In this document: positions 35,465-55,500 of the stretch, one piece after another
Layout: every line of letters begins with the position of its first letter
Numbering within the stretch: position 1 is the first letter of the stretch
Virus record (IMG/VR): IMGVR_UViG_3300033521_000004
Span: 1,144-65,143 of that record
Length of the DNA: 64,000 bases
DNA from: a virus
Taxonomy: Duplodnaviria > Caudoviricetes
Strand: one strand, 5' to 3'
Notes under the pieces: model-generated
Databases searched by the model: none
What the model saw: only the letters and a program-made list of their open reading frames with translations
Told to the model about the DNA's origin: nothing
Translations under genes and position numbers: made by a program

Positions 35465-35515
35465 GTTTAGTTTATCTCACTGCCCATTGCCAACTAGATT
35501 GTTTAGTTTGTCTCA
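35465..35515. promoter_or_regulatory. Two operator-like 15-mers in the cro/cI gap
   Basis: GTTTAGTTTATCTCA (35465) and GTTTAGTTTGTCTCA (35501). Confidence 0.65.
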
Positions 35516-35558
35516 TGTAAATTTACGCCTTTCGCCCAACAGAGTGCAGGGAAGTCCA

Positions 35559-36176
35559 ATGTCCAAGATCCTTGCAGGCCGGCTCAAGGCAGCGCGTACC
35601 GCGTCACACCCGCCCATCCTCCAAAAGGATATTGCCAAGCGATTCAGGGTTACCCCGGGGGCCGTCTCCCTATGGGAATCTGGCACCACGGAGCCGAGCA
35701 CCGAAGTTCTGGCCGAGCTGGCCAAGCTCTACAAAGTGAGCGTGGATTATCTGGTCGGCATGACAGAAGGGCGCACGCTGGACGTGCAATTCAATACGCC
35801 GCTGCACACTGTCCCCCTCGTTCCAGCGCGGGCCTTGGCCAAGTGGCGCTTAGAGCTGGAAACTGGGCGTCTCCAGACGGAAGTTGCCTATGTGAAGGGG
35901 TCAGCAGCGGCCATGCTGGTTGCGTCTGACGCACTCACATCAACCTGCCCCTATGGCAGCTACGCGGTAGTCAGCAAGCTCCACAAGCCAGCCCCGGGGT
36001 GCGTGGTGCTGGCCGACACAGGCCGGGTAAGCGAGCCTGTGCTGCGGCGCTACATTGAAGAGGGAAGCGACCGCCTGCTTATGGCCGACGATGCCCGTTG
36101 GCCTACGCTAAAGCTCGTGCAATCCAAGATCGTTGGCTGCGTTGTCGAGGTCACGCTGCGCCGGCGCCTTATGTGA
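35559..36176 (+). CDS. cI: CI-like repressor, XRE HTH plus degenerate S24 domain
   Basis: LQKDIAKRFRVTPGAVSLWESGTTEPS...YKVSVDYL; the S24 region has SDAL and VLRRY where GDSM and TxKR are expected. Confidence 0.85.
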   Translation: MSKILAGRLKAARTASHPPILQKDIAKRFRVTPGAVSLWESGTTEPSTEVLAELAKLYKVSVDYLVGMTEGRTLDVQFNTPLHTVPLVPARALAKWRLELETGRLQTEVAYVKGSAAAMLVASDALTSTCPYGSYAVVSKLHKPAPGCVVLADTGRVSEPVLRRYIEEGSDRLLMADDARWPTLKLVQSKIVGCVVEVTLRRRLM

Positions 36177-37884: not shown

Positions 37885-38646
37885 ATGGCATTCGACCTCT
37901 CTTCCATTACCAAGGGCAAGCGCCTTCGCGCTCCCAAAGTCGTGATCTATGGCCCGCCCAAGATCGGCAAGTCCACCTTTGCGGCCACGGCACCCAACGC
38001 CATTGGCATCCTGACCGAGGAAGGCTTGGACAACATCGACGTGGCTGCATTCCCTCTGTGCACCACCTACGCTGACGCGCTCACGGCCATCAACACCCTG
38101 CGCGTTGACCCCCACGAGTTCCAGACCGTGTTTGTGGACTCGCTGGACTGGCTGGAGCCTCTGATCTTGGCCAAGGTGTGCGGCGACAAGGGCGTCAAGA
38201 ACATCGAGGACATTGGCTACGGCAAGGGCTACATCATGGCCGACGACCTGTGGCGCCAGTTCTTCGCGGCTCTGGACACCCTGCGTAACGAGCGCAACAT
38301 GACCGTGATCTGCATCGCCCACGAGCAGATCAACAAGGTGCGCAACCCGACGCTGGCCGAGGACTATGACGCCTACTCGCTCAAGCTCAACAAGCGGGCC
38401 GTGGCCATCATCAGCGAGTGGGCCGACGTGATCGGGTTCTGCGCCCACGAGGTCATGACCCGTCAGGTTGACTCTGGTTTCCAGCAAAAGGAAACCAAGG
38501 CGATCACCACCGGCCAGCGCAAGCTGCACACCAACCCGAACGCCGCCTACGTTGCGGGCAACCGGTACGGCATGCCCGACTGCCTGCTGAACTGGGCCGC
38601 TTTTCAGACCACGCTCGGCGCGGCCATGACTTCGCCCTCGAAGTAA
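37885..38646 (+). CDS. AAA_24 ATPase (Sak4-like annealing/recombination protein)
   Basis: IYGPPKIGKST Walker A, VFVDSLDWLE, ICIAHE, WADVIGF. Confidence 0.9.
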   Translation: MAFDLSSITKGKRLRAPKVVIYGPPKIGKSTFAATAPNAIGILTEEGLDNIDVAAFPLCTTYADALTAINTLRVDPHEFQTVFVDSLDWLEPLILAKVCGDKGVKNIEDIGYGKGYIMADDLWRQFFAALDTLRNERNMTVICIAHEQINKVRNPTLAEDYDAYSLKLNKRAVAIISEWADVIGFCAHEVMTRQVDSGFQQKETKAITTGQRKLHTNPNAAYVAGNRYGMPDCLLNWAAFQTTLGAAMTSPSK

Positions 38647-38681: not shown

Positions 38682-39194
38682 ATGGCAAATCTCGCAGGCT
38701 TTGATGCCTCCCAAGTACCCGAACAGCAGGACTTCGCAGCCCTGCCCGAGGGTCAATATGTGGCCATTGCCACCAGCTCGGAAGAGAAGGTGACCAAGGC
38801 CGGCACCGGCAAGTACCTCCAGATCACCTTCGAGGTGATGGACGGCCCCGCCAAGGGCCGCAAGCTCTGGGCACGCCTGAACCTCTGGAACCCCAACCAG
38901 ACGGCCAAGGAAATTGCGCAGCGTGAGCTGGGCGCCCTGTGCCGTGCGGTGGGCGTCATTCGCCCCAATGACAGCTCCGAGCTGCACAACAAACCTCTGG
39001 TGCTGACCGTCAAGGTCGAGCTGGACGACAAGCAGCGCCAGAGCAACACCATCAGCAAGTACGAGCCGCTGCCGCAGGCCGGCATGCCTGCCGCGCCCCC
39101 GGCCGCGCCCCAAGCCCAAGCCCCAGCGTTCCAAAGCGCATCTGCTGCGCCTGCCGCCGCTGCGGCACCGGCCTCGATGCCTTGGGCACGCTAA
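38682..39194 (+). CDS. DUF669-like ssDNA-binding protein
   Basis: FAALPEGQYVA, GKYLQITFEV..GP.KGRKLW; Pro/Ala tail ending PW. Confidence 0.85.
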   Translation: MANLAGFDASQVPEQQDFAALPEGQYVAIATSSEEKVTKAGTGKYLQITFEVMDGPAKGRKLWARLNLWNPNQTAKEIAQRELGALCRAVGVIRPNDSSELHNKPLVLTVKVELDDKQRQSNTISKYEPLPQAGMPAAPPAAPQAQAPAFQSASAAPAAAAAPASMPWAR

Positions 39195-39299: not shown

Positions 39300-39751
39300 A
39301 TGACTGAAAAAGTCGCATTCAACCCGGCCAGCGTGCCGATCAACTACACCCTCAACTTCCAACAAGTTGACTTGATCTTGAAGGGTCTGCGCGAGCTGCC
39401 CCGCAAAGAGTCCGAGGGCTTCTACGACCAGTTCCGCGCGGTGGCCGTGCAGACCATCCAAGCTGCCGAGCACTTGCACGACAACCCGCCCGAACTCGAA
39501 ACGACAGCGGCCCCAGAAACCGAGCGTGCGGGAGGTACTGACTAATGGCCACCCGCATCTATGTTGTTGGAGACAAGCAAGGCGCCACGCAGCGACTGGT
39601 TCGCGCTGGCAATCAGGCTCAAGCCCTGCGCCACGTTGCCAAGGATCGCTTCGAGGTCAAGGTCGCTGACCAAAACACGCTGGTCTTCTTGATGGAGAAC
39701 GGCGCCAAGGTCGAAACGGCTGAAACCGAGACGGTGGAGCAGCCGGCGTGA
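39300..39751 (+). CDS. Two small hypothetical genes: 39300-39545, 39545-39751
   Basis: RBS AAGGA; coupled. Confidence 0.65.
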
Positions 39752-40269
39752 TGCTGTTTATCGGCACCAAGCTGGTCAAGTCGCGTCCTATGACGCGGCT
39801 TGAATACAACCTGTACCGCGAGTGGGAACTTCCTGCGAACGAGAACGGCACCGACGAAGGCTATCTGGTCGAGTACATGGACGGCGGCAAGCCTAACCAC
39901 CCTGCCCACCATGGCTATATCAGTTGGAGTCCGAAGGCCCAGTTTGATAACGCCTACCGCCCATCGAATGCCATGACGTTCGGGATGGCCTTGGAAGCCC
40001 TAAAGCAGGGCCACAAGGTCGCCCGCTCCGGTTGGAACGGTAAGGGTATGTGGCTGAGTTTGTCCGGGCCGGTTGAGGGGAGAGTGATTTCCCCCGAACT
40101 GTTTTGGTCAAAGAACAACCGCGACTGGGCCGAGAAGCGAGGCGGCGCATTGGTGTTGCCCTGCATCACCATGAAGACGATCGACTCTAGTGGCCGCGAG
40201 GGGATCTTGATGGGCTGGCTTGCCAGTCAGACTGACATTCTGGCCGAAGACTGGGAGATTGTTCTATGA
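39748..40269 (+). CDS. Two-domain protein ending in DUF2829 (Tad2-like)
   Basis: MTFGMALEALKQGHKVARSGWNGKGMW...GWLASQTDILAEDWEIV; separate N-terminal GTK..K.RPM...GYLVEY.DG...YISWSPK..F domain. Confidence 0.8.
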   Translation: MMLFIGTKLVKSRPMTRLEYNLYREWELPANENGTDEGYLVEYMDGGKPNHPAHHGYISWSPKAQFDNAYRPSNAMTFGMALEALKQGHKVARSGWNGKGMWLSLSGPVEGRVISPELFWSKNNRDWAEKRGGALVLPCITMKTIDSSGREGILMGWLASQTDILAEDWEIVL

Positions 40270-40532
40270 AGCTGACCCAAGAAGACATCGAGAGCGTAAT
40301 CGTTCACGAGCAGTACCACGTCTTTCCCGGCACGACGGTAACGGTGTGCTGCCTGACGTTACTCAACGGGTTCAATGCAGTTGGCGAGTCGGCCTGCGTT
40401 GACCCCAAGAACTTCAATGCCGAGATGGGCCGCAAGATTGCGCGTGACAACGCATTCGATGTGGCTTGGAAGGTTGAAGGCTACCTGCTCAAGCAGCGCA
40501 TGTTTGAAGAGAGCAGAGCGTCCGACTCCTGA
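40266..40532 (+). CDS. Phage_gp49_66 family protein (Acb4-like)
   Basis: TVTVCCLTLLNGFNAVGESACVDPKNFNAEMGRKIARDNAFDVAWKVEGYLL. Confidence 0.8.
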   Translation: MKLTQEDIESVIVHEQYHVFPGTTVTVCCLTLLNGFNAVGESACVDPKNFNAEMGRKIARDNAFDVAWKVEGYLLKQRMFEESRASDS

Positions 40533-40565: not shown

Positions 40566-40922
40566 ATGCGTGACACCCCGGAGAGACGGGGGCACTACCA
40601 AAGGATGTACGAAATGAATTACCAAGAAGAATGCCGGAAAATGATGATCCACATGGGTTGCAACTTTTCCAGCGACCAGTTTGCAGAAATGATTGAGGCA
40701 ATGGCCGTGGCGATTGCCCGCACCATGGCCCTGATCGAAGACCACGACCAGATGCACGAGGCCTTGGAGAAACTGTGCGAAGCCATGCAAAAAGACGCAT
40801 GCCACCACCACGCCTTCTTGCACAAGGTCAAAGAGGAAAAAGCAAAAGCAGATGGCGTGCGCTTTATCAATGCCGAAGATTTCCTACGCGACATCTTCAA
40901 GCCGGAGAAGTTCAATGGCTGA
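40566..40922 (+). CDS. Hypothetical protein
   Basis: Met/His-rich helical ORF; start uncertain. Confidence 0.5.
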   Translation: MRDTPERRGHYQRMYEMNYQEECRKMMIHMGCNFSSDQFAEMIEAMAVAIARTMALIEDHDQMHEALEKLCEAMQKDACHHHAFLHKVKEEKAKADGVRFINAEDFLRDIFKPEKFNG

Positions 40923-42006
40923 TCTAACCGGTGCAATTGACCCGATTGTCAGCGCCATCTACGAGGCCTATCACAAGGCCGGGAGCGTCGAGGCCAGCCG
41001 CGCCTATCTGGGTGCGTCGATCATCGGTAAAGAGTGCAGCCGCGCACTCTGGTACGACTTCCGCTGGGCCAGCAAGGCCGACTTCGACGGGCGCATGTAC
41101 CGCCTGTTCCAGACCGGACACTTGGAAGAGCCGCGCATGGTGGCCGACCTCCGTGCCATTGGTGCCGAGGTATTCGACGTGAACCCGGCCAATGGCAAGC
41201 AGTTCGGCTTCGTTGACCACGCTGGCCACATGCGCGGCCACATGGACGGCTGCGCCCGCAATATCCCCGGTGGCGGTGGCAAGTGGCACGTCCTTGAGTT
41301 CAAGACCCACTCGGCCAAGAGCTTTGCCGACCTGACCAAGAACGGGGTGAAGAAGTCCAAGCCGCAGCACTACGACCAGATGCAGTGGTACATGGGCCAG
41401 AGCGGCATGGATCGCGCTCTGTACTTGGCCAAAAACAAAGACACCGAAGAGCTGTACAGCGAGCGCGTGCCATTCGACAAGGTGCGCTTCGAGCAGATCC
41501 AAGTCCGTGCCCCGAGCGTGATCTTCGCCGAGACGCCGCCCTCGAAGCTCTCCGAAGACCCAAGTTACTACGTCTGCAAGATGTGCGACCACCGCCCTGT
41601 GTGCCACCTTGGCCGTGTTCCTGCCGTCTCTTGCCGAACTTGTGTGCACTCCACCCCGGAGCAGCAGGGAGATGGTCGCTGGTCATGTGCAAAGACCGGC
41701 ACGCCAGATCCAAACATCAACAGCATCCCGATCAACGTGCAGCGGGCCGGTTGCCCCCAGCATCTTCCCTTGCCGTTTCTGTTGACCTACGCCGAGCCGG
41801 TGGATGCTGGGGATGGCTGGATTCACTTCAAGCGCAAGGACAACGGCAAAGAGTTCATCGTGACCACGGGCCAAGTGCCTTTCGCGCCGCAGGAATACCC
41901 GCTGTATTCGACGCAAGAAATCAGCGCCGCTGCCGACCACAAGGCTATTTGCGACCCCGGCATCGAAGACTACCGCCAGAAGTTCGGCGCAACGATTGTG
42001 GGGTGA
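40915..42006 (+). CDS. Cas4/RecB-like PD-(D/E)XK exonuclease with Cys clusters
   Basis: YLGASIIGKECSRALWY, GHMDG, LEFKT, HYDQMQWYM, CKMCDHRPVC, CRTCVH; start at ATG 40915. Confidence 0.85.
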   Translation: MADLTGAIDPIVSAIYEAYHKAGSVEASRAYLGASIIGKECSRALWYDFRWASKADFDGRMYRLFQTGHLEEPRMVADLRAIGAEVFDVNPANGKQFGFVDHAGHMRGHMDGCARNIPGGGGKWHVLEFKTHSAKSFADLTKNGVKKSKPQHYDQMQWYMGQSGMDRALYLAKNKDTEELYSERVPFDKVRFEQIQVRAPSVIFAETPPSKLSEDPSYYVCKMCDHRPVCHLGRVPAVSCRTCVHSTPEQQGDGRWSCAKTGTPDPNINSIPINVQRAGCPQHLPLPFLLTYAEPVDAGDGWIHFKRKDNGKEFIVTTGQVPFAPQEYPLYSTQEISAAADHKAICDPGIEDYRQKFGATIVG

Positions 42007-42009
42007 CGT

Positions 42010-43186
42010 ATGGCCATGCACGTTACCGACGAGCTAAAGCGTAAATTGTTGAGCGGAGAAATTCTGGCCGACGTTCCATTCGACGCAATCGAGATACGCG
42101 GAGACGATTACGGCTTGACTGTCTATTTCATGTATTGCGGCAAGGGAGTGCTGTATCAAAAAGTACCCCCTGTTCGGTTTGATATTGGCGAGACGCTGAC
42201 CATCACCGGATTTGACGGAGTAGTAAAGATCGGAGTGACTGTATGACTTTCCACGTCCCCAACAAATACCGCGTCCGTGGTGGCCGCTTGGCCAGCACCG
42301 AGGCCTATGGCAACAACGGCGCCTTTGAAATCCCTCTCAAGCACGGCCAGCGCGTGTTCGTGATGTCGGGAGATGGCCTTGGCTGGGAGCACGTCAGTGT
42401 GTCTCGCAAAGATCGCTGCCCCACATGGGACGAGATGTGCCAGATCAAAGACCTGTTCTGGGATGACACCGATTGCGTGGTGCAGTACCACCCGCCGCGC
42501 AGCGAGTACGTCAACAACCACCCGTATTGCCTGCACCTTTGGCGTCAGATCGGTGCAGAGTTTCCTCTTCCTGACAGCATCATGGTTGGGACAACAGCAT
42601 GATTGAAGAAACAAAAGCAGTCCAGCGATGGGCAGTAGAGGCGCATGAAGGCGGCGGCTTTGTTGCAGTGGGTGACTACATGACGCTCCGCGCAGAGAAC
42701 AAGCGGCTGAACAAAGGCTTGGCAGATGCGAACCTGTTGGCATTCAAACACGCCCAAGAGATTGAGCGACTCCGCGAGAAGTTGTCCTTACAAGAACAAA
42801 ACCGCTCGGCAATTGAGCAAAAGGAACCCAGTTTGTCCCCACAGGAGCAAGCGGAGCCGGTGGCGTGGATGAGCAACGGTGGTTGCGGGTCGGTTATTGC
42901 AGCAGAAGAAAAGAGTGATGGGTTTGCATACACCGAAAGGTTTTGCATCCCACTCTACACCGCACCCCAAGGCCAAACAGTCAACGCAGAACTAAGGTGC
43001 GTCATATCTGACCTTGGCGATCAGGTGCGTGAACGTGATGCCCTGCTGCGGCAGGCTCTGGAACAGCTCCGATGCAACACAGACAACATGAACAAGGGTA
43101 TGAGCAAGTCAATTCAGAGGCTGTGTGCTCGTGAAAACAAAGCAGTCATCCAATCCATCAAACAGCACTTAGGTGAAGCAACATGA
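42010..43186 (+). CDS. Three genes: 42010-42246, 42243-42602 (DUF7694-like), 42599-43186
   Basis: Middle ORF WEHVSVS...PTWDEMC..K..FW...QYHP...YVNNHPYCLHLW; the flanking ORFs are AT-richer. Confidence 0.6.
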
Positions 43187-44817
43187 TCACGCTGCGCCCC
43201 TACCAACGCGAGGCCATCAATGCCATCTGGGCCTACTTTGGCGAGCACACGGGCAATCCGCTGATCGTCCTACCCACGGGCGCGGGAAAAAGCCTGACCA
43301 TGGCCGCGTTCATCGCCGAGGCCATGGCCGCGTACTCCGGCATGAATGTGCTGCTGCTCACCCACGTCAAGGAACTGATCGAGCAAGACGCCAAGGCCAT
43401 CATCAACTACTGGCACGATGCGCCTATCGGCATCTGGTCTGCTGGTGTTGGCCAGAAGGTCAAAGACCAGATCACCGTGGCTGGCATCCAGTCCATCCAC
43501 AAGCTGCCGGCCAAGTTTGCCAGCACCGACCTCGTGATCATTGACGAGGCCCATCTGGTGCCGCGCAACAGCGACACCATGTACCGGCGCTTTCTCGACG
43601 CCCTGATCAAGTACAACCCCAAGATCAAGGTGATCGGGCTGACGGCCACGCACTACCGCATGGACTCTGGCCTGCTGACCGAAGGCTCCAGCCGGATCTT
43701 CACCGACGTGGCCTACGAGGCCGACGTGGGCACGCTGATCAAGGATGGCTGGCTCTGCCCTCTGGTGGCCAAGAACGGCGCCACCAAGGCCGATTTGGCC
43801 AAGGTGCATACCCGTGGCGGCGAGTACGTCGAGAAAGAGCTGCAAGACGCCATGGACAAGACGCACCTGATCGAGGGTGCACTGGACGAGGTCGCCCAGT
43901 ACGCAGCCGACCGCAAGCACGTCCTTGGGTTCTGCGCCGGAGTGGAGCACGCCGCGCACTGCGCAGAGCTGGCCCGCGCTCGCGGCTGGACTGCTGCCCA
44001 CGTCAGCGGTGACATGGCCGCAGGAGAGCGCGACCGCATCATTGGTGACTTCAAGACCGGTCGCATTCGCTTCCTCTTCAATGCCAACCTGCTGACCACC
44101 GGCTTCGATGCGCCGCACATCGACTGCATCATCATGCTGCGCCCGACCAAGTCCACCGGCTTGTATGTGCAGATCATGGGCCGGGGGTTGAGAAAACATC
44201 AAGACAAGGAAAACACCCTCGTGCTGGACTTCGCCGGCAACATCGAGCGCCATGGCCCCATCGACCAGATCCGCGTTAAGCGCAAGGGCGAGAAGGGCGA
44301 CAGCGTATCGGTGGCTCCAGTGAAGGAATGCCCGGACTGCCACGAGCTGCTGGCCACTATGGTCATGGTGTGCCCCCAGTGCGGCCACGAGTTCCCACGG
44401 CAAGCCCCCCACGGCACCGAGGCCAGTGAAGCCGTGCTGGTGGCCGCGCTCGCGCAGCCCAAGGTCTACGCCGTGGATTCTGTCGAGTACGAAACGCATC
44501 ACAAGGCCGGTAAAGATCCGAGCCTAAAGGTCACCTACTGGTGTGGCCCGTCTTCCTTTGTTGAATGGGTGCCAATCGAGGACGAGCGCCACTTCGTCAG
44601 GAAGCATGCAATCTACTGGTTCTACAAGCGCAAGCTGGCATGCCCCGATACCGTTGAGAAGGCTCTGGCCATGATCGACAAGATCCCAGCCCCGGACACC
44701 ATCACGGTCAAGCTGGACGGCAAGTATTGGCGCGTGATCGACTGCGATATGGGGTCTAGTCGCATGAACATTTCCCAGAAGGTCGGCAGCTACTTGCTTA
44801 TGGGTCGTGCAGCATGA
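43183..44817 (+). CDS. SF2 DEAD/DEAH helicase with zinc ribbon
   Basis: LPTGAGKS, IIDEAH, GLTAT, LTTGFDAP, QIMGRGLR, KECPDC...CPQCG. Confidence 0.95.
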   Translation: MITLRPYQREAINAIWAYFGEHTGNPLIVLPTGAGKSLTMAAFIAEAMAAYSGMNVLLLTHVKELIEQDAKAIINYWHDAPIGIWSAGVGQKVKDQITVAGIQSIHKLPAKFASTDLVIIDEAHLVPRNSDTMYRRFLDALIKYNPKIKVIGLTATHYRMDSGLLTEGSSRIFTDVAYEADVGTLIKDGWLCPLVAKNGATKADLAKVHTRGGEYVEKELQDAMDKTHLIEGALDEVAQYAADRKHVLGFCAGVEHAAHCAELARARGWTAAHVSGDMAAGERDRIIGDFKTGRIRFLFNANLLTTGFDAPHIDCIIMLRPTKSTGLYVQIMGRGLRKHQDKENTLVLDFAGNIERHGPIDQIRVKRKGEKGDSVSVAPVKECPDCHELLATMVMVCPQCGHEFPRQAPHGTEASEAVLVAALAQPKVYAVDSVEYETHHKAGKDPSLKVTYWCGPSSFVEWVPIEDERHFVRKHAIYWFYKRKLACPDTVEKALAMIDKIPAPDTITVKLDGKYWRVIDCDMGSSRMNISQKVGSYLLMGRAA

Positions 44818-45019: not shown

Positions 45020-45394
45020 ATGAAGACCCTCACCCTGATCGAAGCCGCTGCGCTTCTTGGCCTGCACCCAGTCACCTTGCAGGGTCGGGCCAAGGCCGGC
45101 GCTATCCCCGGCGCCAAGGTTGGCCGCGAGTGGCGCTTTCTCGACGTTGACCTGATCGAGTATCTGCGTTCACAATATCCTTCCTCCAACCCACAGCCAC
45201 AGCCATGCCGCACGGTCTATACCGCAGGAAAGGCAGCAAAACGTGGTACGTCCTGCTCTACAACAACGGGCAGCGCATTCGAGAAAGCACTCGGACTACC
45301 GATCGCAAAGAAGCCGAGGCGTATTACGACGACCTCCGCGCCCGCCTGCGCACGCAGGAACAATCTGGCATCTCATGGAAAGAGGCCTGCATAG
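45020..45394 (+). CDS. xis: Excisionase-like HTH_17 protein
   Basis: Start at ATG 45020: MKTLTLIEAAALLGLHPVTLQGRAKAGAIPGAKVGREWRF; tail overlaps int. Confidence 0.8.
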   Translation: MKTLTLIEAAALLGLHPVTLQGRAKAGAIPGAKVGREWRFLDVDLIEYLRSQYPSSNPQPQPCRTVYTAGKAAKRGTSCSTTTGSAFEKALGLPIAKKPRRITTTSAPACARRNNLASHGKRPA

Positions 45395-46191
45395 CGTGGC
45401 TCAACGCCGCTCCGCGCTCCGAGAATGACCGCTACATCTTGCGGTCGCTGGGCGACGAAGACTGGCCGCTGCGGGACGTGACTGCCGACTCATTCGACCT
45501 CACCCACCTGACCCCGGCCACCTTCAACCGCTACCGGGCAATCATCGTGGCCGTCTGCCGGTACTCCGGCCACCAGCTCAAGATGCCACTCAAGCCGGTC
45601 AAGAACGGCCGGCTGCGCTTCCTGACGGCCGAGGAATGGAAGCGGCTCTACAAGGAACTGCCAGCGCACTTGAAACCCTTGGCCAAGTTCGCCATCTCCA
45701 CCGGCCTGCGCCAGCGCAACGTGACCATGCTGCGCTGGGATCAGATCGACATGAGCCGTAGCATGCTCTGGATTCACGCCGATCAGGCCAAAGCGAACCG
45801 CGCGATAGGCATCCCCCTATCGACCGACGCCATGGACGTGCTGGTTGGCCAAGATGGCAAGTCAAAAGAGTGGGTCTTCCCGTACAAAGGGCGCGGCCGC
45901 AAACAGGGCGAGCCGATGGTGAAGATCAAGACCGCGTGGACGGCTGCGCTGGAGCGGGCCAAGATCGAGGGATTCACTTGGCATGGCCTTCGCCACACAT
46001 GGGCTAGTTGGCATATCATGGCAGGCACCCCCATCGAAACCTTGGCCAAGCTGGGCGGCTGGGAGGATCTTCGCATGGTGCAACGGTACGCGCACTTATC
46101 CACGGAGCACTTGGCACAGTTCGCCGGCAACGCACTCCCGTGGTCTAGGAAACAGCCACAAAAACAGCCACACAGGAGCGCAGCTTCATAG
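45205..46191 (+). CDS. int: Tyrosine integrase
   Basis: TGLRQRN (R), WHGLRHTWAS (HxxR), LGGW, RYAH (Y). Confidence 0.95.
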   Translation: MPHGLYRRKGSKTWYVLLYNNGQRIRESTRTTDRKEAEAYYDDLRARLRTQEQSGISWKEACIAWLNAAPRSENDRYILRSLGDEDWPLRDVTADSFDLTHLTPATFNRYRAIIVAVCRYSGHQLKMPLKPVKNGRLRFLTAEEWKRLYKELPAHLKPLAKFAISTGLRQRNVTMLRWDQIDMSRSMLWIHADQAKANRAIGIPLSTDAMDVLVGQDGKSKEWVFPYKGRGRKQGEPMVKIKTAWTAALERAKIEGFTWHGLRHTWASWHIMAGTPIETLAKLGGWEDLRMVQRYAHLSTEHLAQFAGNALPWSRKQPQKQPHRSAAS

Positions 46192-46250: not shown

Positions 46251-46263
46251 AAATCAAAGACTT

Positions 46264-46293
46264 AGGCCCGGTAACCCCGGGCCTATTTCTTTT
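46264..46293 (+). terminator. Terminator-like hairpin after the att core
   Basis: AGGCCCGG-TAACC-CCGGGCCT followed by ATTTCTTTT. Confidence 0.6.
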
Positions 46294-46566: not shown

Positions 46567-49500
46567 TCACTTTGCAATATCAAGACCGACGCGACCACGA
46601 AGCTCCCGGGGCGTTGATTTCAGGATCCGGGTGTTCTGATCCGTCAGGTACTGTCGGGCCGCGCTGCGGATCTGGTCGCTGTTGATCTTCACCGGCGTGT
46701 CTGGGTTGCGCTTGTTCCAGTCTTCCAGCCGCTGCGCAGCCTTCTTGGACAGGGCATCGTCCTGCGTGGCAATCCCTCGCGCCCACATATCCACAATGCT
46801 CGACTCCATTTGCTTTTGAAGTGCGGCATCTTGCATGCCCGGGGCACGAGAGCGTGAGGCGTCGGCAATCTTGGTCGGGTTGAACCCCACGGCCTTGATC
46901 GCCGCGTCGGCCAGCGTCACGTCCATGTTCTTGCGACCCTTGGAGTCCTTGGCCGTGCCCGTGCTGGCCATGTCGGCTGCGGCCATCAGATCCTTGATGG
47001 CCTTGGGAGACAGGTTTTCCAGCGCCTTGCGGGTGTTGCCCTCGGAGTAGGCCTCCTTGGCCTTGAAGATGCTCTCAACCATGCTTCCGGCCGGCCCCCC
47101 AGCTTCGGCCAGATCGCGCGTCAGGTTGCCCTCTTCCGACACCTTGAGCGCCCCAGTGCCCGGGATCAGGTTGCCCATACCCATGCGGCCGGAGAAGTCC
47201 AGCGGGAGCTTGGCCGAGACGCCGTACAGGGCAAGGTCGCCCCACGTCTCGCCAAACTTCTCGTGCGCCCAGCGGCGCATGTTGCGCTTCATGTTCGTGT
47301 CCGACTTGAAGAACAACTGGCCGATCGTGTCGATCAGATCCATGATGTCGTCAGCAAACGGGGCGCCCACGGCACCAGACAGCAAGATCAGTGTGGCCAG
47401 TGACAGAGCCACGGCACGCTTGCCCTCGGCGCCACCGTCGCGCCACATGCGCCGCTGCATCTCGATGTACATGATCGAGTATTGCTTGAACGTGAAGACG
47501 GCGCGGCCTCCCCACGGGCGGGCCAAGTTGGGCCGGTTGGCCTTGTTGTAGATACCCTGCGTCTCGTTGACGGCACGAACCGCGAAGGCGTAGGGGTTGC
47601 GCTCGTTGTTGGCGATGGCCACGTTCCAAGCCGCAATGAAGGCCACCTTGCGGTTGAACTTCTCGGCCACCGAGAACATCATGCCCCACAGCGTCAGAAA
47701 TGCCTCGCCACGGGCGCGTAGGCCTTCGGTGCCCTGCTTGAGCTTTTCTCCGACCACCGGCACGCGCGAAGCGAGGTTGGCCAACTGGCGTGATACGCCT
47801 TGGGCGCCTTGGCTGTACAGGTGGAAGATTTCTTGCGCTTCCACAATGCCCTCGCGGCTGGCGCGTTGCAGCGCCTTGGCCAGATCCTTGTCCGTGATCT
47901 GAACTTGACCCATGGCCACCGGGACGGCCTTGGCCATGGCCACGCTGGCTGTGCCGACCCCGAACTGGGACAGGTACGGGCCGGTCATGGTCACCGTCTG
48001 CGTCAAGTTCATGGCCGCAGCCGCCACCGAGCCGCCGAGGAAGTGGGCAAACATGACCGACGACAGCACTGCCCCGCTATCGTTGGGGTTCATCATGAAC
48101 TTGCGCAGCTTGATTGCCTCGTCGCGCACGTCACCCTTGGCGTTGGGGATGTACTTGATGGCGTTATTCAGGTCGCGCATGTAGTACCGCTGCGCTGCGA
48201 ACCGGCCATTGCTGGTAACGAAGTTGGCCAAGATACGGGGCAGATCCTCGCTGTACCCGGCAGTTCCCTTGCGTTCGAGCTTGCGCTTGAGCGCCGACCG
48301 CTCGGTCAGAGCGTTCTTGTAAAACTCCTTCATGACCTGATCGACGCCGACCTCGTCGGCAAACAGCGCCAGCGTCTCTGGCGACAGGCCTTGGTACAGC
48401 TCGTGGGTCAGGTTGCTCTTGACCCCGGGGGTGATGCGGATCGTGTCGTCGCCGGCGTACTTGATGCGCAGCCGCTCTTCTGCCTTCTTGGCTTCGGCTT
48501 CCGTCTCGAACTGGCGGTAATACTCGGTGATTGATTTGCCGTCTGGATCCTTGGCCAGCGTACCCGTGGCCGGGTCAATCCGCTGCACCGTCAGCGAGTA
48601 CGGGCCAAAGCGCATCAGCGGCGCGTAGCCGGCCTTCTTGAGGTCGCGCGACTTGCCAAACAGCGCCTTGAGACGTTCTTCCGTGTCGGTGTAGGCGGCG
48701 ATCGAGGCCGTCAGGTAGTCGATGCGCTCTTGGCTGGCCTTGGACTTGATGGCCGCGTCCAGCGTGGTTTGCAGCATCTTCTTGCCCTTGGACAGGGCAC
48801 CGAACAGCACCCGGTTGGCGTGCTGCGGGTTCTCGATGATCTGGCGGCGGGCCTGCTTTGGCACATAGCCTTGGCACAGGGCAAAGGCTTCGGCTGCTGC
48901 GACCTCGTCAAGGCTGGCGTCGATCGCCGCGCGGGCTTGCTCATAGAGCGCGACCCCGGCATCGTCCAGACCGAAGTTGTTGCGCAGCTCGTCGGTCGTC
49001 CAGACCCTTCCCTCCATGACGGTTGCGCCTTGCAGCGTGCCGGCGAACAGCGCGGAAGCTGCGCCCTGCATGCTCTTGTGCGTGCGCTGGCCCAGTGTCA
49101 GCGTGGAGACGGCCGACTTGAAATCGTCCACCTTGCGCAGGATTCCCGGCGCCAGCTCGGCCGGCCGGATCGAGGTCAGCGAGACTTCGTTCTGCATGGC
49201 GTTGATGTAGCCAAACACCTTGCCGTAGTCGTTGTCCTTGAGCGCCTTGTGGAACTGGGTAGCAATGCTCCGGTCGTACCAGCCAAACGTGCGCAGGCTC
49301 TGCGAGTTGCCAAAGAACTGCGCGGCATCGCGCTTGATCTTGGCCATGATGTCCTGCGGGTTCGGTACTTCGGCCTTCTGCTCGGTGCCCTTCTCGCCCA
49401 TCCACTGCGAGTAGTCCATGTTCACCAGCATGCCGTTGTTCAGGTCACCTTCGCCCTGAATGACTGCTTTCAAGGCCCGCAGCACCGGCGCGTCACTGGA

Positions 49501-52500
49501 CAGGCCGAGGAATCCTTTGACGTGCTGGTAGAACTCCTTGAGCCACTGCACTGCCCGAGACACCCACGAGCCGCGTGCCTCGTACCGGCCGGAGACGATG
49601 CGCGTGGCATTCACCGCCCAGAACTCCGACGGGCTGTAAAGCTGGTAGTGCTGGTCGTAGGTCAGCGTGCCGTCGTTGAAGGCCTTGGCCACCGCCTTCG
49701 TTGCCTCTTGGTTGCCCATGGAGGCCTCCAGCATGGCCCGCATGGCCGCTTTGGTGGCCGGTGTGGCCTTGCGGTAGGTGGCGTCCCATTGGCGCTGCCA
49801 CTCGCGCAGCACGCCACCCTGAACCATGTGCGGCATCATCTGCTCGACGTGGTGCAGGATTTCGTGCACGGCCGTGTTGCCGTTCTCGTCCAGATTGGCC
49901 GCAAACAGCTTCATGACGCGGCTGATCGGGTTGTAGTTGCCGCGTGAGGTCAGGTCGCTCTTGACGCTGATCGAGTAGCCGAGGTCATTGGCCAAGTGCG
50001 GGTTCTGATCCAGCAGCCACTTGGCAAACTCGGCCTGATTGCGCGGCACCAAGCCGTCTGCCACGCCGCGCATCAACTGGGCGACCACCCAGTCAGCACC
50101 GCGCCGACGGCCGCGCTCGACCTCGGCAATCTTGCGGTCGTCGGCCTGATCGTTGAGCATGCGGGTGATTTCCCGCACGCCAAAGACGTACTCGGCCTCG
50201 GTGATCTTGCCCGCGTCGAGCTTGCGCTCCAGCGAATTGAGTTTTCCTCGTGCGTTGACGCGAACGGAATCCGGCAGACCGGCAAACGCATAGGACGGGC
50301 TGACCTTGAGGTCGTTCAAGACTTGAGGCTTGTTCTGCCCCAGCATCTCGCGGGCCTGCTCTTGGTGAGTAAGCGCCACCAGCGTCTCTTGCCGTCCGGT
50401 GATCAGGTAGTCGATGGCCTTGGCCGCGTCTTCCCCGTAGAACATCGACGCCACCATGACGCTGCCGCGCTTGTAGAAGTCGCCTTGCAGCACGTCGGTG
50501 AATTGCTTGTCTAGGAAGTAGGTGCCGCCCTCTTTCTTGGACGACGGCACGATGAAGTTGTAGCGGTTGCTCTGCTTGGTGATGCGCAGCACGCCGTCTT
50601 CGGTGCCCACCGTGCCCTTGAAGTTGTCGAGGAACTTCACAACCTCGGCCCCGGTCTTGATGCCGACGGGCTGGTTCTTCATTTCCTTGTCGAAGTCGAA
50701 CTGGCGATTCATCAGCACGCCTTGGCCGGTTGTGCCGTCCTTGCGCGTGTAGGTGATGATCTGCCCCGGGAACTTGGCATACCCGGCCAAGATGTTGCCG
50801 GTCACCATCCACCGCTTCTCGCGGCGGGCCGTGGTGCCCTTGTCAAAGACGGCCAGAACCGAGATGTATTCGAGCTGCTGCGTCTCTGGGTTGAACCAGT
50901 TGATCTGGTCTTCGCGGGCCAGTTGGTACTTGGTGCCGAGCTGGCTGAAAGTCAGGTTCAGGCTCTTGGCGTCACCGTTGGCCAGCGCAATCGTCATCTT
51001 CCAGTCAGACCCGGCCGCAGGGTTGGCCGTGCGCTTGGCCGGTTTGATGTCGGTGATAACGCCGTAGACGATCATGCCCAGCTTGTCCTTGATCGAGACG
51101 GACATGCCGATTTGGTAGGTTTCCAGCGCGGCCTTGGTGTTGCCCAAGATCATGTTGAGCAGGTTCTTTTGCGCCTCAATCTGGAGATGGTCGGCGTTTG
51201 GCTGCGCTTCCATCTTGGCAATGCGCTCCTTGGCCCATGGAATCATGCGATCGCGCAGATCCTCGATGTTCTCACGCGCAATTTGGTGGGCGCTCTTGCC
51301 GTCCAGACTCTCTTCGATCAGGCCATTGACCTCCTTGGACGAATACGGCTTGACAGTGCGCTTGACATTGACCTGTTCCATGTTTGCCGGAGCGGCAAAG
51401 ATCGAGGGGTCGCCCTTGTCCTCGGTGATCTGGCGGGTGTTCAGCGTCTCGGCGTCAAGGTCAACGGCCTTGGCTTCGAGCTTGTTGGTGCCCATCGTGT
51501 TCTCGCGCTCCAGCAGCTCGTTGTAGCGGTCGATCAGATCCTTGTAGATTTCCTCCTGCTGCTTGATGGGCAGGATCGGCACATAGCCGGTGAACTTGCG
51601 AATGTCGTCTTCGGTGGCTTCGGACGAATCCTCGACCAGCGAAATGATCTTGTTGCCACCGATGGCTTCGAGCACGTCGGGGTTGTCGCGCAGATACTCC
51701 TGCACCACTTGGCCACCGTAGTCGTTCATGAAGTCCACCACGCCCTCGGCCGTCACGCTGGACTTGCGCGAAGCGGTGGTGTTGGCGTTCAAGCTGGCCA
51801 TCTTCTTGAGCAGCACGGCTGCGGGCCGCATCTCGGCGGGAACGTCGGCCATCATCTGCGAGTAGGCCGGGGCGATCACTTGGCCAGTGCGGTGCACACG
51901 GCCCAGCATCTGCATGTGCGTGTCGATGTTCTTCTCGGCCTGCACGATGATCATGTGCCGCTTCTTCTTGTCCTTGACCTTGGAAGATGCGTGCAGCGAC
52001 AGGCCAGTGGATCCGGCCTGATTCAGGATGATCACGTCGATGTCGCCGTTGTTGAATCCGCGCACCGCGTTGACCCGCTGCCGGATGTTGGCGCTGCGGC
52101 TGGTGATTTTCGGGCCTGCGGAAGACGCCCCTCTAGCCTTGCTAAACCCATCCAGTTCGCTTTGGTAATTCTTATCTACTTCCGCCGTTTCCCCTGTCGG
52201 GAATGACATGGGTGGACTGGAGACAAACAACTCGCCAGTCTTCAAGTTCTTGGCCACGAAATAGAGATTCCCGTTCTTCTCCTTCGACTCCTTCACACGG
52301 CCGACGATTACAGCGCGGTTGCTTCCAGAATTGTCATCAGCAATCACTTTCCCAACATCGAAATCATTGCCTTGCATCTGGTATGGCTTGGCGTTCGCGT
52401 AGGCCGAATACCACTCCGTCTTTTGCTCTCCCTGCTCTAGGGTCTTGAAGCTGAATTTTGTTTCTTCCCTAGCCTCTCCTACGCCAACCTCAGAATAGTT

Positions 52501-55500
52501 GAGCGTGATGGTGCGGCCCGTGATTTCGTCGGTCTTGTAGCCTGCCTTGCGCAGCTCGTTGTGCATGTAGTCGATGGGGCTGATCGGAGCCGAGCCAAAC
52601 CCAGAATTGGCAATCTCTTGGCCAATCTCGTTGAACATATTGACCAGACCGGGGCCAAGCTCCTGATCGGTCAGGCGGCGCTGGTTCTTCTGGCCACGGG
52701 CGTCCTTGATGGTCACCCAGCGTTGCTTCTCCAAGTACCGCTGGTACAGGTCGGCAAAGGTCAGGGCCACCGGGTCGCCCACATTCAGGCCCATCTCTTC
52801 CGCGTAGGTCTGGAGGAACGAACCCATGGTGTTCGAGACGGTCATCACCACCTTCTCGCCTGCTTTCAGGCGCTCGATGGCGTGGCGCACGCTGTCTTGC
52901 ACCTTGAGCGAAAGCAGCATCTGGTCGATCAGGTTGTGCATGACCGAGCCGAAGTTCGACCCTTGGATGGTGGCCTTTTCGCCGCCCATCTCCTTGACCA
53001 TCGCGCCCTCTTTGTCCATCTCGGACTGGATTTCCTTGACGGCCTTTTCCTTGGCCCGGGAGAAGGCCAGCACGCGGCGCATGGCTTTGGCCATGTTCTC
53101 GGCCGTCTGCTTGTCCACCGCTGTCTCGACCGTGTCGTAGGAGACGCCGGCAAAGGTGCGCTCGCGCCGGATGTACTGGCCATCCGTGGTCAGCATGTTG
53201 GCCACCACTTGCTGCATGGGCACGCCGCCGGTCTTGATGGCCTCGGCCAACTGGCTGAGTTTGTCCACAGCCAGCTTCATGTTGGTGCTGGAGTACAGAT
53301 CCATCACGTCGGGCCGCTTGGCGTAGGTGGCCGACGAGAAGAAGGTGCCGAATGCACGATCAACCAGCCCGCGCACGAATGCAGCGCGGCCTGTTTGGTC
53401 AGCAGACCCCTCTGCTTCGCGTTGCTCACTGCTGCGTGCTTTGTTGCGTTGAGGCCCAGCGCCGCCAGCGTTGTGCGACTCATCGAAGATCATGAAGTTG
53501 GACGAGCCGAACTGCTGCACAAACTTCATGCGGTCGGTCACCTTGCCCTTGACCGTCTGCAACTGGCTGTAAGTGGTGAAGATGACCTTGTAGTCGCCCA
53601 AGCTCTCGCCTTCCATCATGTCGCGGAAGAGCTTGTTCAGCGGCTCGCCAGACTTGGGCGCCTTGAGCGTCAGGTTGTTCTCGGTGACCTCGCCATTGAC
53701 CGTGCGCAGCAGGGTGTAGGGTATCGACTCCGAGCCGTTGGTGATCAGAATTTTGGGCTTGGCCGTGTCCAGCCCCAGCTCGTCGGTCATGCCGATGTCG
53801 TCCAAGTCCCGAATCATGTCCGAGTACAAGTTCGGCTTCTCGGTGACGAAGATGGGCGTCTTGTCGTTGACGATGGCGTACTTGATCATGGCCGCGACCA
53901 CCCGGCCCTTACCGATACCGGTCTGGTCGCCAATGATGAACCCCCGGCCCTCTTCGGCGTTCTTGATGGCCAGCGCCAGCGCGTCTACCTGCTCGGCCGA
54001 GAAGTTGGTGCGTACCGTCTCGATGTCCATGCCAAGCCGATCTGCAACGTACTCGTCCAGATTGCCAAGCGTGTCCTCGATCTTCTGGAGCGATGCCTCG
54101 ATGGCACCGGCCATGGCCCGGGGCACGAGCGTGCCCACGGATGCAGCTTGAGAGTGCGGAGCGTAGGCGACTTGGCCGGATGTTTCCTGCTCTTCGCCCC
54201 GGCGGTCGTTCAGTCCAGACTCGACGCGCTCACCAGCGACAACGCTTGTTCCACCCAGTCGCTCAGTTCCAGCTCCAGTGCGTCCTTGAGTTCCTGTGCC
54301 GGCTCGCCCGCTGTCGCCGGGAACGGATGCTTCGCCGGCATTGCCAGATTGAGGTTTGTCCGTAGATTGAGGTTGTTGAGTACCAGTGCCTGTCCCGCTT
54401 CCTCGATTTCCTCCGGTTCCGGTACGTCCAGATTCCGGCACGCTTGCATCGTTTCCACTGCGCCCGCTTTGTTCGCCAGTTCCTGCACCCGATCCGCTAG
54501 GGCTTCGATCCACTCCCGCTCCGTCACTTGCCCCGGGTTGATCCGTACCGCTATCAGTTCCAGCGGTGCTGCCATCCCCTTCGGTGCCCACGCTACGAGT
54601 GCCATTCAGTTTCTCCTTGAGTTCGTCATACGAGCCGATCACCTTGGGCAGATCGGCGGCGGGAAGATCACGGGACGACTTGCCGCGCCCCTCGATGACG
54701 ATGACATCCACCGGGTAGCTCGCGCCTTGTTTGGCGTAAAGAGAGCCATCCACAGTGAAGTGGTCAACGACATTGTAGTTTTGGTACAGGTTGAAGTAAA
54801 ACGCCCGCTTGTTCTTACCGCGATAGTCGCCACGGCGCCCTTCTTCACTGGTCGCGTTCGAGCCGCCGACGATGAGCACGGCGCGGCCGTCGTCCTTCAT
54901 GCTGGCCAGCGCCTTGAATGCGATGGCATGGTCGATTTCGCTGGTCTGATAAAAGGCCGTGCTCGACACTTCGGCGCGGTAGACGATGGTGTCACCGCTG
55001 TCGTTCTTGACGACTCCAAAAGGCGGGTTGGCAATCACCGCATCTACCGGGTAGCCTGAGTGGCGCACGTTCTCCGTGGCCGCGTTTTTGTGCGTCGGGT
55101 CAAAGCCCATCTGGCGCAGCATGGCCGCGCGGGCCAGATTCAGCTCGTTGACAACGGCATTCTTGATGCCGGCGCCGATCAGCAGCATGCCGTTGCCGGC
55201 GGTCGGCTCCAGCACTTTCGTCTTGTTGTTGATGCCCGCCAGCTCCGAGGCCACAAAGGCCAGCGGCACGGGCGTGCTGTAAGCCTGTTCGCGCACGCTG
55301 GTGGACGAGCGCACCGATAGGTTCGGCTGCGCGTTGTACAGCGCCAGCAACCGGTCGTAGATGACCTGTGCGCTGCGGCCCTGCTTGCGACCGGCCTCGA
55401 CCATGTCCCGGGCGGCGATGACAACGGCCGCTTCGATCGTCTCGTCGGCCAGCTTGGCCAACTCGGTGCCGGGGTCAATCTTCTTGCCGATCAGCTCGCC

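Follow-up and report, generated by a model that had tools for sequence, protein, structure and literature searches.

Two overlapping plus-strand genes in the replication operon of a temperate phage probably encode a coupled pair of early-made, homo-oligomeric sponges for bacterial immune signals. They are located in a stretch of 64,000 nucleotides (the window, to which all coordinates refer), which comprises bases 1144-65143 of the 65,143-base IMG/VR record IMGVR_UViG_3300033521_000004, rated as 100% complete by CheckV. The first open reading frame (ORF1, 39748-40269, 173 amino acids) consists of a small N-terminal domain, here termed N-domain, and a Tad2 domain, and the second (ORF2, 40266-40532, 88 amino acids) is a minimal Acb4-family protein. 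Both would be expressed early, together with recombination and replication genes. The Tad2 domain, most likely a tetramer, would most likely take up the type I Thoeris signal 1''-3' glycocyclic ADP-ribose (gcADPR) and possibly the Pycsar signals cyclic UMP (cUMP) and cyclic CMP (cCMP), by analogy with the homologue Tad2_70. ORF2, most likely a tetramer as well, would sequester 3'3'-cyclic GMP-AMP (cGAMP), a signal of the cyclic oligonucleotide-based anti-phage signalling system (CBASS), and probably also 3'3'-cyclic di-AMP (c-di-AMP, cAA), like other homologues from phages of Gram-negative bacteria. Removal of the signals before they reach their effectors would allow the phage to escape abortive-infection defences, and the N-domain would be a separate module accompanying several sponge families. 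This proposal builds on the family membership of both proteins, the fold of ORF2, the intact gcADPR pocket of ORF1, the coupling of the two genes and the repeated occurrence of the two families in linked or fused form; the oligomeric states, ligands and rescue from defence are extrapolated from there. The pair would be one more natural example of a phage stacking sponges against Thoeris, Pycsar and CBASS.

A previous sequence-only reading of this DNA had described two ATGA-coupled ORFs at 39748-40532 in the replication operon of a temperate phage, one with a DUF2829 and one with a Phage_gp49_66 pattern, and had taken them for a cassette of two sponges against Thoeris and CBASS. The coordinates and the overlap were confirmed in the sequence, and the two-sponge interpretation fits published Acb4-Tad2 fusions that block both defences (10.1101/2025.07.12.664507). 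The likely list of targets is wider than was proposed, since Pycsar is added via Tad2_70, and the N-terminal 73 residues of ORF1, a separate domain, had not been mentioned.

The DUF2829 pattern corresponds to a match of the Tad2-like profile PF11195 far beyond chance (E 1.1e-23, 84 bits, cut-off 25, profile positions 1-73 of 73) to residues 76-172 of ORF1 (39973-40263, plus strand). Solved Tad2 proteins were matched by sequence as well, namely HgmTad2/AcrIIA7 (8kbi, E 1.9e-15), SPO1 Tad2 (Gp34.65, 8sme/8smf; E 4.4e-12 for 8sme), SptTad2 and ModTad2 (both approximately 4e-12 to 7e-12). HgmTad2 and SPO1 Tad2 share PF11195 with ORF1, but differ in the length of an insertion (about 33 residues in ORF1 vs 41 in HgmTad2 and 24 in SPO1 Tad2) and do not possess the additional N-terminal domain. 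Over its whole length, ORF1 matches phrog_872 (2.6e-55), and full-length relatives are found in 89 phage records. In the PDB, the best sequence matches bear the titles 'Inhibitor of Type II CRISPR-Cas system' and 'AcrIIA7', and an anti-CRISPR annotation is given to ORF1 relatives in some phage records, so that ORF1 could be taken for an AcrIIA7-type anti-CRISPR protein. This is extremely unlikely, because Cas9 inhibition by HgmTad2/AcrIIA7 was not reproduced in vitro or in vivo and the protein was found to be a sponge for gcADPR and cyclic dinucleotides instead (Li et al., 10.1101/2023.11.15.567273), a view shared by Yirmiya et al.

For a comparison of the ligand pockets, which in homotetrameric Tad2 lie where protomers meet, the HMMER alignment of ORF1 with HgmTad2 was read against the contacts named by Li et al. 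In HgmTad2, gcADPR is contacted by W21, N22, G23, M76, A78, T82, V84, W87, L88, S90, T92 and D93, and binding was lost in the W21A/N22A and S90A/T92A/D93A variants (10.1101/2023.11.15.567273). The residues W21, N22, G23, W87, L88, S90, T92 and D93 align with W96, N97, G98, W157, L158, S160, T162 and D163 of ORF1 and are identical in all eight cases; M76 is retained as M142. The nearest experimentally tested relative located was Tad2_70 (97 amino acids, IMGVR_UViG_3300004775_000033), which has 60% identity to ORF1 residues 76-172 (E 4e-36) and whose native locus (L307:204-494; L numbers denote the loci compared in this study) was found via a short degenerate motif. Both proteins contain the motifs GWNGKGMW and ILMGWLASQTD as well as a similar long insertion (NFWS.NN...GG.A.VLPCITMKT), whereas Tad2_70 is a single-domain protein without N-domain and ORF1 has four additional residues before the final strand. 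Tad2_70 blocked type I Thoeris as well as the cCMP and the cUMP Pycsar system, and was ineffective against type II and IV Thoeris and two CBASS systems (Hadary et al., 10.1101/2025.08.24.671296, Table S2). The gene following Tad2_70 (L307, 507-1061) encodes a 184-amino-acid protein without Pfam match, the N-terminus of which looks similar to Acb2-type helices by eye only.

The second pattern was confirmed by a match of PF13876 (Phage_gp49_66) to ORF2 residues 3-78, again far beyond chance (E 4.8e-30, 104.3 bits, cut-off 27, profile positions 1-81 of 82). The tentative statement of the sequence-only reading that the Gp49/66 family had been reported as Acb4 is borne out by Chang et al. (10.1101/2024.12.30.630793), who placed SPO1 Acb4 in PF13876 with 1,331 homologues. 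SPO1 Acb4 (9e4w) was also matched by ORF2 at the sequence level (E 1.2e-4). For ORF2, an AlphaFold2 model based on 39 sequences reached a pLDDT (predicted local distance difference test) value of 96.7 and contains the elements of the Acb4 fold, in which three antiparallel strands are flanked by helices, long ones being located at the C-terminus (helix 5-11, strands 12-19, 25-32 and 37-43, helix 52-87). In a Foldseek search of the PDB with this model, the ten best matches listed were all chains of 9e4w (probability 1.00, template modelling (TM) score 0.68-0.74, E 6e-5), while the next family followed at an E of 3e-2 only. The root-mean-square deviation was 1.3-1.8 Å over 65-72 residues in the best chains and 3.9-4.4 Å in others, with 28-31% identity over 65-75 aligned columns. 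Both the profile match and the predicted structure make the assignment of ORF2 to the Acb4 family and fold clear.

SPO1 Acb4 is a tetramer with four 3'3'-cGAMP molecules bound (10.1101/2024.12.30.630793). This ligand was bound by all eight homologues tested; those from phages of Gram-negative bacteria also bound 3'3'-cAA, and cyclic di-GMP was bound by none (10.1101/2024.12.30.630793). The host of the phage described here is presumably Gram-negative, which would place ORF2 next to the latter group of homologues. Compared to SPO1 Acb4, ORF2 is shorter at the N-terminus (88 vs 96 amino acids). Of the SPO1 residues, it has kept F48 for base stacking, F62 and N63 of the adenine pocket, and K81; substitutions affect K36 and E49, which are specific for guanine, and Y57 and T70, which contact phosphate. 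An Acb4-like protein encoded in another locus (L049, 4520-4936) carries an N-terminal extension of about 55 residues that is absent from ORF2; this extension may be a further domain with an accessory role in the Acb4 family.

ORF1 and ORF2 are coupled by an ATGA junction (40253-40269: GGGAG, 8-nt spacer, ATGA), in which the TGA stop codon of ORF1 (40267-40269) overlaps the ATG start codon of ORF2 (40266-40268) in the context CT-ATGA-AG. ORF1 itself is coupled to a 68-amino-acid ORF (39545-39751) by a similar GTGA junction (39733-39751: GGTGGAG, 8-nt spacer, GTGA), where its GTG start codon overlaps the TGA stop codon of the upstream gene. This GTG start agrees with the N-terminus of the family, M-x-x-[YF]-I-G-T-K. 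An overlap of one base links the 68-amino-acid ORF to an 81-amino-acid ORF (39300-39545) before it, so that the chain comprises four reading frames. They are part of a rightward plus-strand operon encoding, in this order, a Sak4-like AAA_24 protein (37885-38646), a DUF669 single-strand DNA-binding protein (SSB; 38682-39194, PF05037 3.8e-20, phrog_6015 SSB), the four chained ORFs, a 118-amino-acid ORF, a Cas4-domain exonuclease (40852-42006, phrog_1990 2.5e-104), a DUF7694 protein, a helicase (43183-44817) and the integrase (45205-46191). A strong bidirectional terminator-like hairpin with a 9-bp stem (46263-46285) ends the operon. The replication-operon setting proposed earlier is thus given by the AAA_24 and SSB genes upstream and the exonuclease and helicase genes downstream of the pair.

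This location might suggest that ORF1 and ORF2, the latter with its fold resembling double-stranded RNA-binding domains, serve phage recombination or replication rather than counter-defence. The two genes lie between those for Sak4/SSB and the Cas4-like exonuclease in one operon, in which intervening terminator-like stems are no stronger than 5-6 bp, and the Acb4 fold has been likened to double-stranded RNA-binding domains (10.1101/2024.12.30.630793). Such a role is nevertheless very unlikely. A backbone of Sak4, SSB, 81-amino-acid ORF, 68-amino-acid ORF, ORF1 and Cas4 exonuclease is shared with relatives, but the Acb4-like gene behaves as variable cargo on it: L155 and L111 have it, L017 and L156 lack it, and in L109 and L110 it is located upstream of Sak4. 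By synteny, the SSB gene forms the left and the exonuclease gene the right border of this variable slot. Moreover, ORF1 relatives are found in head modules of other phages, those members of either family that have been assayed act as signal sponges, and published hotspots put such genes beside SSB and RecA genes. In N4-like phages, an anti-signalling hotspot beside SSB, RecA and primase genes carries Tad2, Tad3, Acb4 and Sequestin (10.64898/2026.06.04.730250). The hotspot of Pseudomonas phage Ab09 adjoins SSB and recombination genes, as does the ORF1/ORF2 cassette.

The linkage of the two families was analyzed by tblastn with ORF2 in 160 loci encoding ORF1 relatives (80 genome and 80 viral loci, flanks of up to 4 kb). 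An Acb4-like gene was found in 45 of these loci, on the same strand as the ORF1 relative in all 45, and 40 of the 45 were its direct neighbors within 400 nt (21 downstream, 19 upstream). In comparison, ORF2 relatives are present in 560 of 50,697 phage records; this background is descriptive only, since the 160 loci are not phylogenetically independent. True fusions according to Pfam were present in two loci, an Acb4-Tad2 protein of 253 amino acids (L061) and a Tad2-Acb4 protein of 216 amino acids (L050). One set of related loci shows Tad2 and Acb4 as separate coupled genes, side by side in both arrangements, and fused, which is of help in annotating those anti-defence hotspots of temperate phages that adjoin SSB and recombination genes. 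In two further loci (L223 and L224, 2090-2917), a Tad2-like gene is located directly upstream of an N-domain-Sequestin fusion (PF21825, 4.2e-13).

The pairing of Tad2 and Acb4 as such is already published, and the window contains a split, translationally coupled version of it in a temperate phage. Tad2 and Acb4 are often fused, and in Pasteurella phage Pm86 such a fusion, Acb4-Tad2, counteracts both type I Thoeris and type I CBASS (10.1101/2025.07.12.664507). As in this fusion and in gp59 of phage Ab09 (Acb4-Sequestin), different sponge families are combined in one expression unit here, but ORF1 and ORF2 are separate overlapping genes, whereas Pm86 and Ab09 encode a single polypeptide. Unlike in the Ab09 and Pm86 arrangements, the Tad2 part of ORF1 is joined to the N-domain instead of Sequestin.

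A number of observations weigh against the proposal that the pair takes up gcADPR and 3'3'-cGAMP. The host, and with it the defences to be countered, is only presumed, the record being a 65-kb contig of a virus in a wetland metagenome. Only four of the ten ligand contacts of SPO1 Acb4 are identical in ORF2 (F48, F62, N63 and K81, corresponding to F36, F50, N51 and K69). The guanine-reading pair K36/E49 is changed to T24/N37, and further changes concern V56 (C44), Y57 (V45), T70 (I58) and I66 (M54). Since few contacts are kept and the guanine-reading pair is replaced, the exact ligand of ORF2 is uncertain. ORF2 also does not contain the N-terminal helix segment IEQEIQAKGLxAPRxTP of most proteobacterial homologues, as is the case for several other short forms. 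In ORF1, the cyclic-dinucleotide pocket of HgmTad2 is lost: R31, P32 and D34 are deleted, F70 and N85 are replaced by V136 and M155, and S47 alone survives (S115). The targets of Tad2 homologues vary widely, including His-ADP-ribose (His-ADPR), N7-cyclic ADP-ribose (N7-cADPR) and cUMP. Finally, the nearest cultured-phage relatives of ORF2, in Ralstonia phage YO128_1 (64%), Vibrio phage PVA1 and Pseudomonas phage KPP23, have neither Tad2 nor N-domain within 2.5 kb, and the nearest cultured relative of ORF1, in Pseudomonas phage phiAH14a, stands alone in the head module.

On the side of the ligands, these observations could mean that both proteins are sponges, the real targets of which are not type I Thoeris and CBASS signals, but for example those of Pycsar or of type II or IV Thoeris for the Tad2 domain, and c-di-AMP-type or other signals, or Panoptes-type decoy signals, for the Acb4-like protein. 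In addition to the different Tad2 clades binding His-ADPR, N7-cADPR or cUMP/cCMP and to the missing guanine-specific contacts of ORF2, the inhibition of Pycsar by Tad2_70, the binding of 3'3'-cAA by Acb4 homologues of Gram-negative phages and the binding of 2'3'-cAA by one Acb4 fusion are in line with such a shift. However, the gcADPR pocket residues are fully conserved in ORF1, type I Thoeris is blocked by Tad2_70, and 3'3'-cGAMP was bound by every Acb4 homologue tested. Other targets altogether are therefore given a small, although not negligible, chance. Because of the kept gcADPR pocket, the lost dinucleotide pocket and the inhibition profile of Tad2_70, the best prediction is that the Tad2 domain of ORF1 sequesters gcADPR, and possibly cUMP and cCMP, rather than CBASS dinucleotides.

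On the side of the pairing, the occurrence of the nearest cultured relatives of each gene without the other shows that the combination is facultative. Together with the synteny variation, it identifies ORF1 and ORF2 as independently mobile cargo, often but not always found together. This bears on the alternative that both proteins function only as one hetero-oligomeric particle, a split Tad2-Acb4 fusion, for which the translational coupling, the natural fusions in both orders and the frequent adjacency of the two families might be quoted. Apart from the unpaired relatives and the independent variation of the Acb4-like gene in syntenic phages, it is at odds with the activity of each family alone in experiments and with the published Pm86 fusion, the domains of which were modelled as separate homotetramers (10.1101/2025.07.12.664507). 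An obligatory common particle is thus highly improbable, and two separate homo-oligomeric sponges made from coupled genes are the preferred interpretation.

ORF1 residues 1-73 (39748-39966) form the N-domain, which is separate from the Tad2 domain. It has no match in Pfam at E<=10 and none in NCBIfam, and a profile built from 74 sequences found no relative among all PDB sequences. The domain is strongly conserved, with the consensus IGTK..A.PMTR..YN..RGW.LP.DENG.D.GYLVEY.DGG..N.....GY[IV]SWSPK..F..AYR. The AlphaFold2 model (pLDDT 96.5) shows a small alpha/beta domain with the order beta-beta-alpha-beta-beta-alpha, for which Foldseek returned nothing from the PDB at E<=0.001 (best E 2.6). In an exhaustive VIA search, the DUF1653 structure 3be3 was found with a Z of 5.2, followed by Tudor, CarD and SH3-like barrels with a Z of 3-4.8, which is too weak to name the fold. 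A homodimer prediction gave an ipSAE score of 0.54 compared to 0.00 for the best control, and three runs agreed on the contacts with a partner pLDDT of at least 90. Among proteins with solved structures, 20 of 30 homo-pairs and 1 of 23 single chains reach this ipSAE mark. The prediction supports a pairing of the N-domain as homodimer. The predicted interface shows no enrichment in conserved residues, as it takes up 13 of the 24 near-invariant positions and 34 of all 72.

Searched against 1.84 billion cluster representatives, the N-domain profile matched 3,364 at E<=1e-3, of which 1,617 reached E<=1e-10. Among the best 150 N-domain proteins, the Pfam partners were Tad2 (58), Sequestin (PF21825, 29), Acb4 (11) and the Acb2/Tad1 hairpin (3), while about one third had none. 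The fusion partners hence cover four of the seven known sponge families. In the ESM Atlas, the fold is found in stand-alone proteins of approximately 78 amino acids (a cluster of 114 members) as well as in Acb4+Sequestin, Tad2+Sequestin and Acb2/Tad1 fusions, and a scan of viral contigs revealed further examples, including a stand-alone gene of 75 amino acids. A highly conserved 197-amino-acid protein consisting of an N-domain and a tail of about 125 residues is encoded at about 2504-3097 in L183-L215, a large set of isolate-derived viral contigs of IMG, and it is plentiful in prophages of sequenced isolates. Its tail gave a borderline match to the Acb2/Tad1 hairpin (26 bits vs a cut-off of 27).

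An identity of the N-domain with Sequestin was rejected, as PF21825 gave no match at E<=10 and the model is mixed alpha/beta instead of a helical hairpin. The N-domain resembles Sequestin in being a short phage domain that is found both by itself and in fusions with Tad2 and Acb4, and in its predicted dimerisation; it differs in its beta-beta-alpha-beta-beta-alpha fold. That it is a module distinct from Sequestin also follows from its fusion to Sequestin itself in 29 of the 150 best proteins. Other known sponges were likewise dismissed as candidates after the Pfam, NCBIfam, PDB profile and fold searches had given no relative. Lockin has a curved, elongated, mostly-beta protomer and forms a hexamer; the N-domain is present in many INPHARED phages, where Lockin is reported to be absent, the two being compared by description only. 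The N-domain motif SWSP is found in none of the tested sponges, including 18 Tad2 proteins (Table S2, 10.1101/2025.08.24.671296). Sequestin was discovered via Pfam families fused to Tad2 or Acb4 (10.1101/2025.07.12.664507), and the N-domain would escape such a screen since it has no Pfam entry. The N-domain might represent a further family of phage anti-signalling modules, acting either as a dimer that soaks up another immune signal or by binding a defence protein, although this is put forward tentatively and is rather doubtful. If true, ORF1 would combine two inhibitors, and the cassette would consist of three modules. The N-domain is the more useful lead: binding of an immune signal or of a defence protein would make it a new and large family of anti-defence modules.

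The 81-, 68- and 118-amino-acid ORFs, for which Pfam, PHROG and PDB searches gave no relatives, were not assigned to the cassette. The 68-amino-acid ORF, regarded as context and not claimed as part of the mechanism, showed a sub-threshold Phage_DsbA match only (E 0.015). Of the 160 loci with ORF1 relatives, 12 also encode a relative of this ORF, mostly just upstream of the ORF1 homologue, and it may be a further cassette partner.

That the phage is temperate, as proposed earlier, is indicated by a CI-like repressor (35487-36176) and the integrase. The terminase, portal, major head and tail-fibre genes are encoded on the minus strand. The portal protein is nearest to that of Achromobacter phage CF418P1 (45%), followed by Stx/933W-like podoviruses (41%), and a prophage in a Polaromonas metagenome-assembled genome (L017) is among the syntenic relatives; a betaproteobacterial host is plausible. 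Near-identical DNA was found only in four wetland metagenome DNA runs, all from one study and one of them probably the origin of the record, with no RNA run among them. The record looks like an unintegrated (virion or circular) gene order, because the integrase gene is located mid-record and is followed by the hairpin at 46263-46285 and then by virion genes on the opposite strand; the phage attachment site attP is probably situated near 46.2-46.5 kb. Directly after integrase and terminator, a minus-strand ORF of 4,504 amino acids (46567-60081) is located. Pfam assigns its residues 62-155 to an SLT lytic transglycosylase domain and about 2027-2866 to a Strawberry-notch-like helicase (AAA_34 and Helicase_C_4), while most of its length is not covered by any family. 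The protein is probably a virion component of giant size, either ejected or internal.

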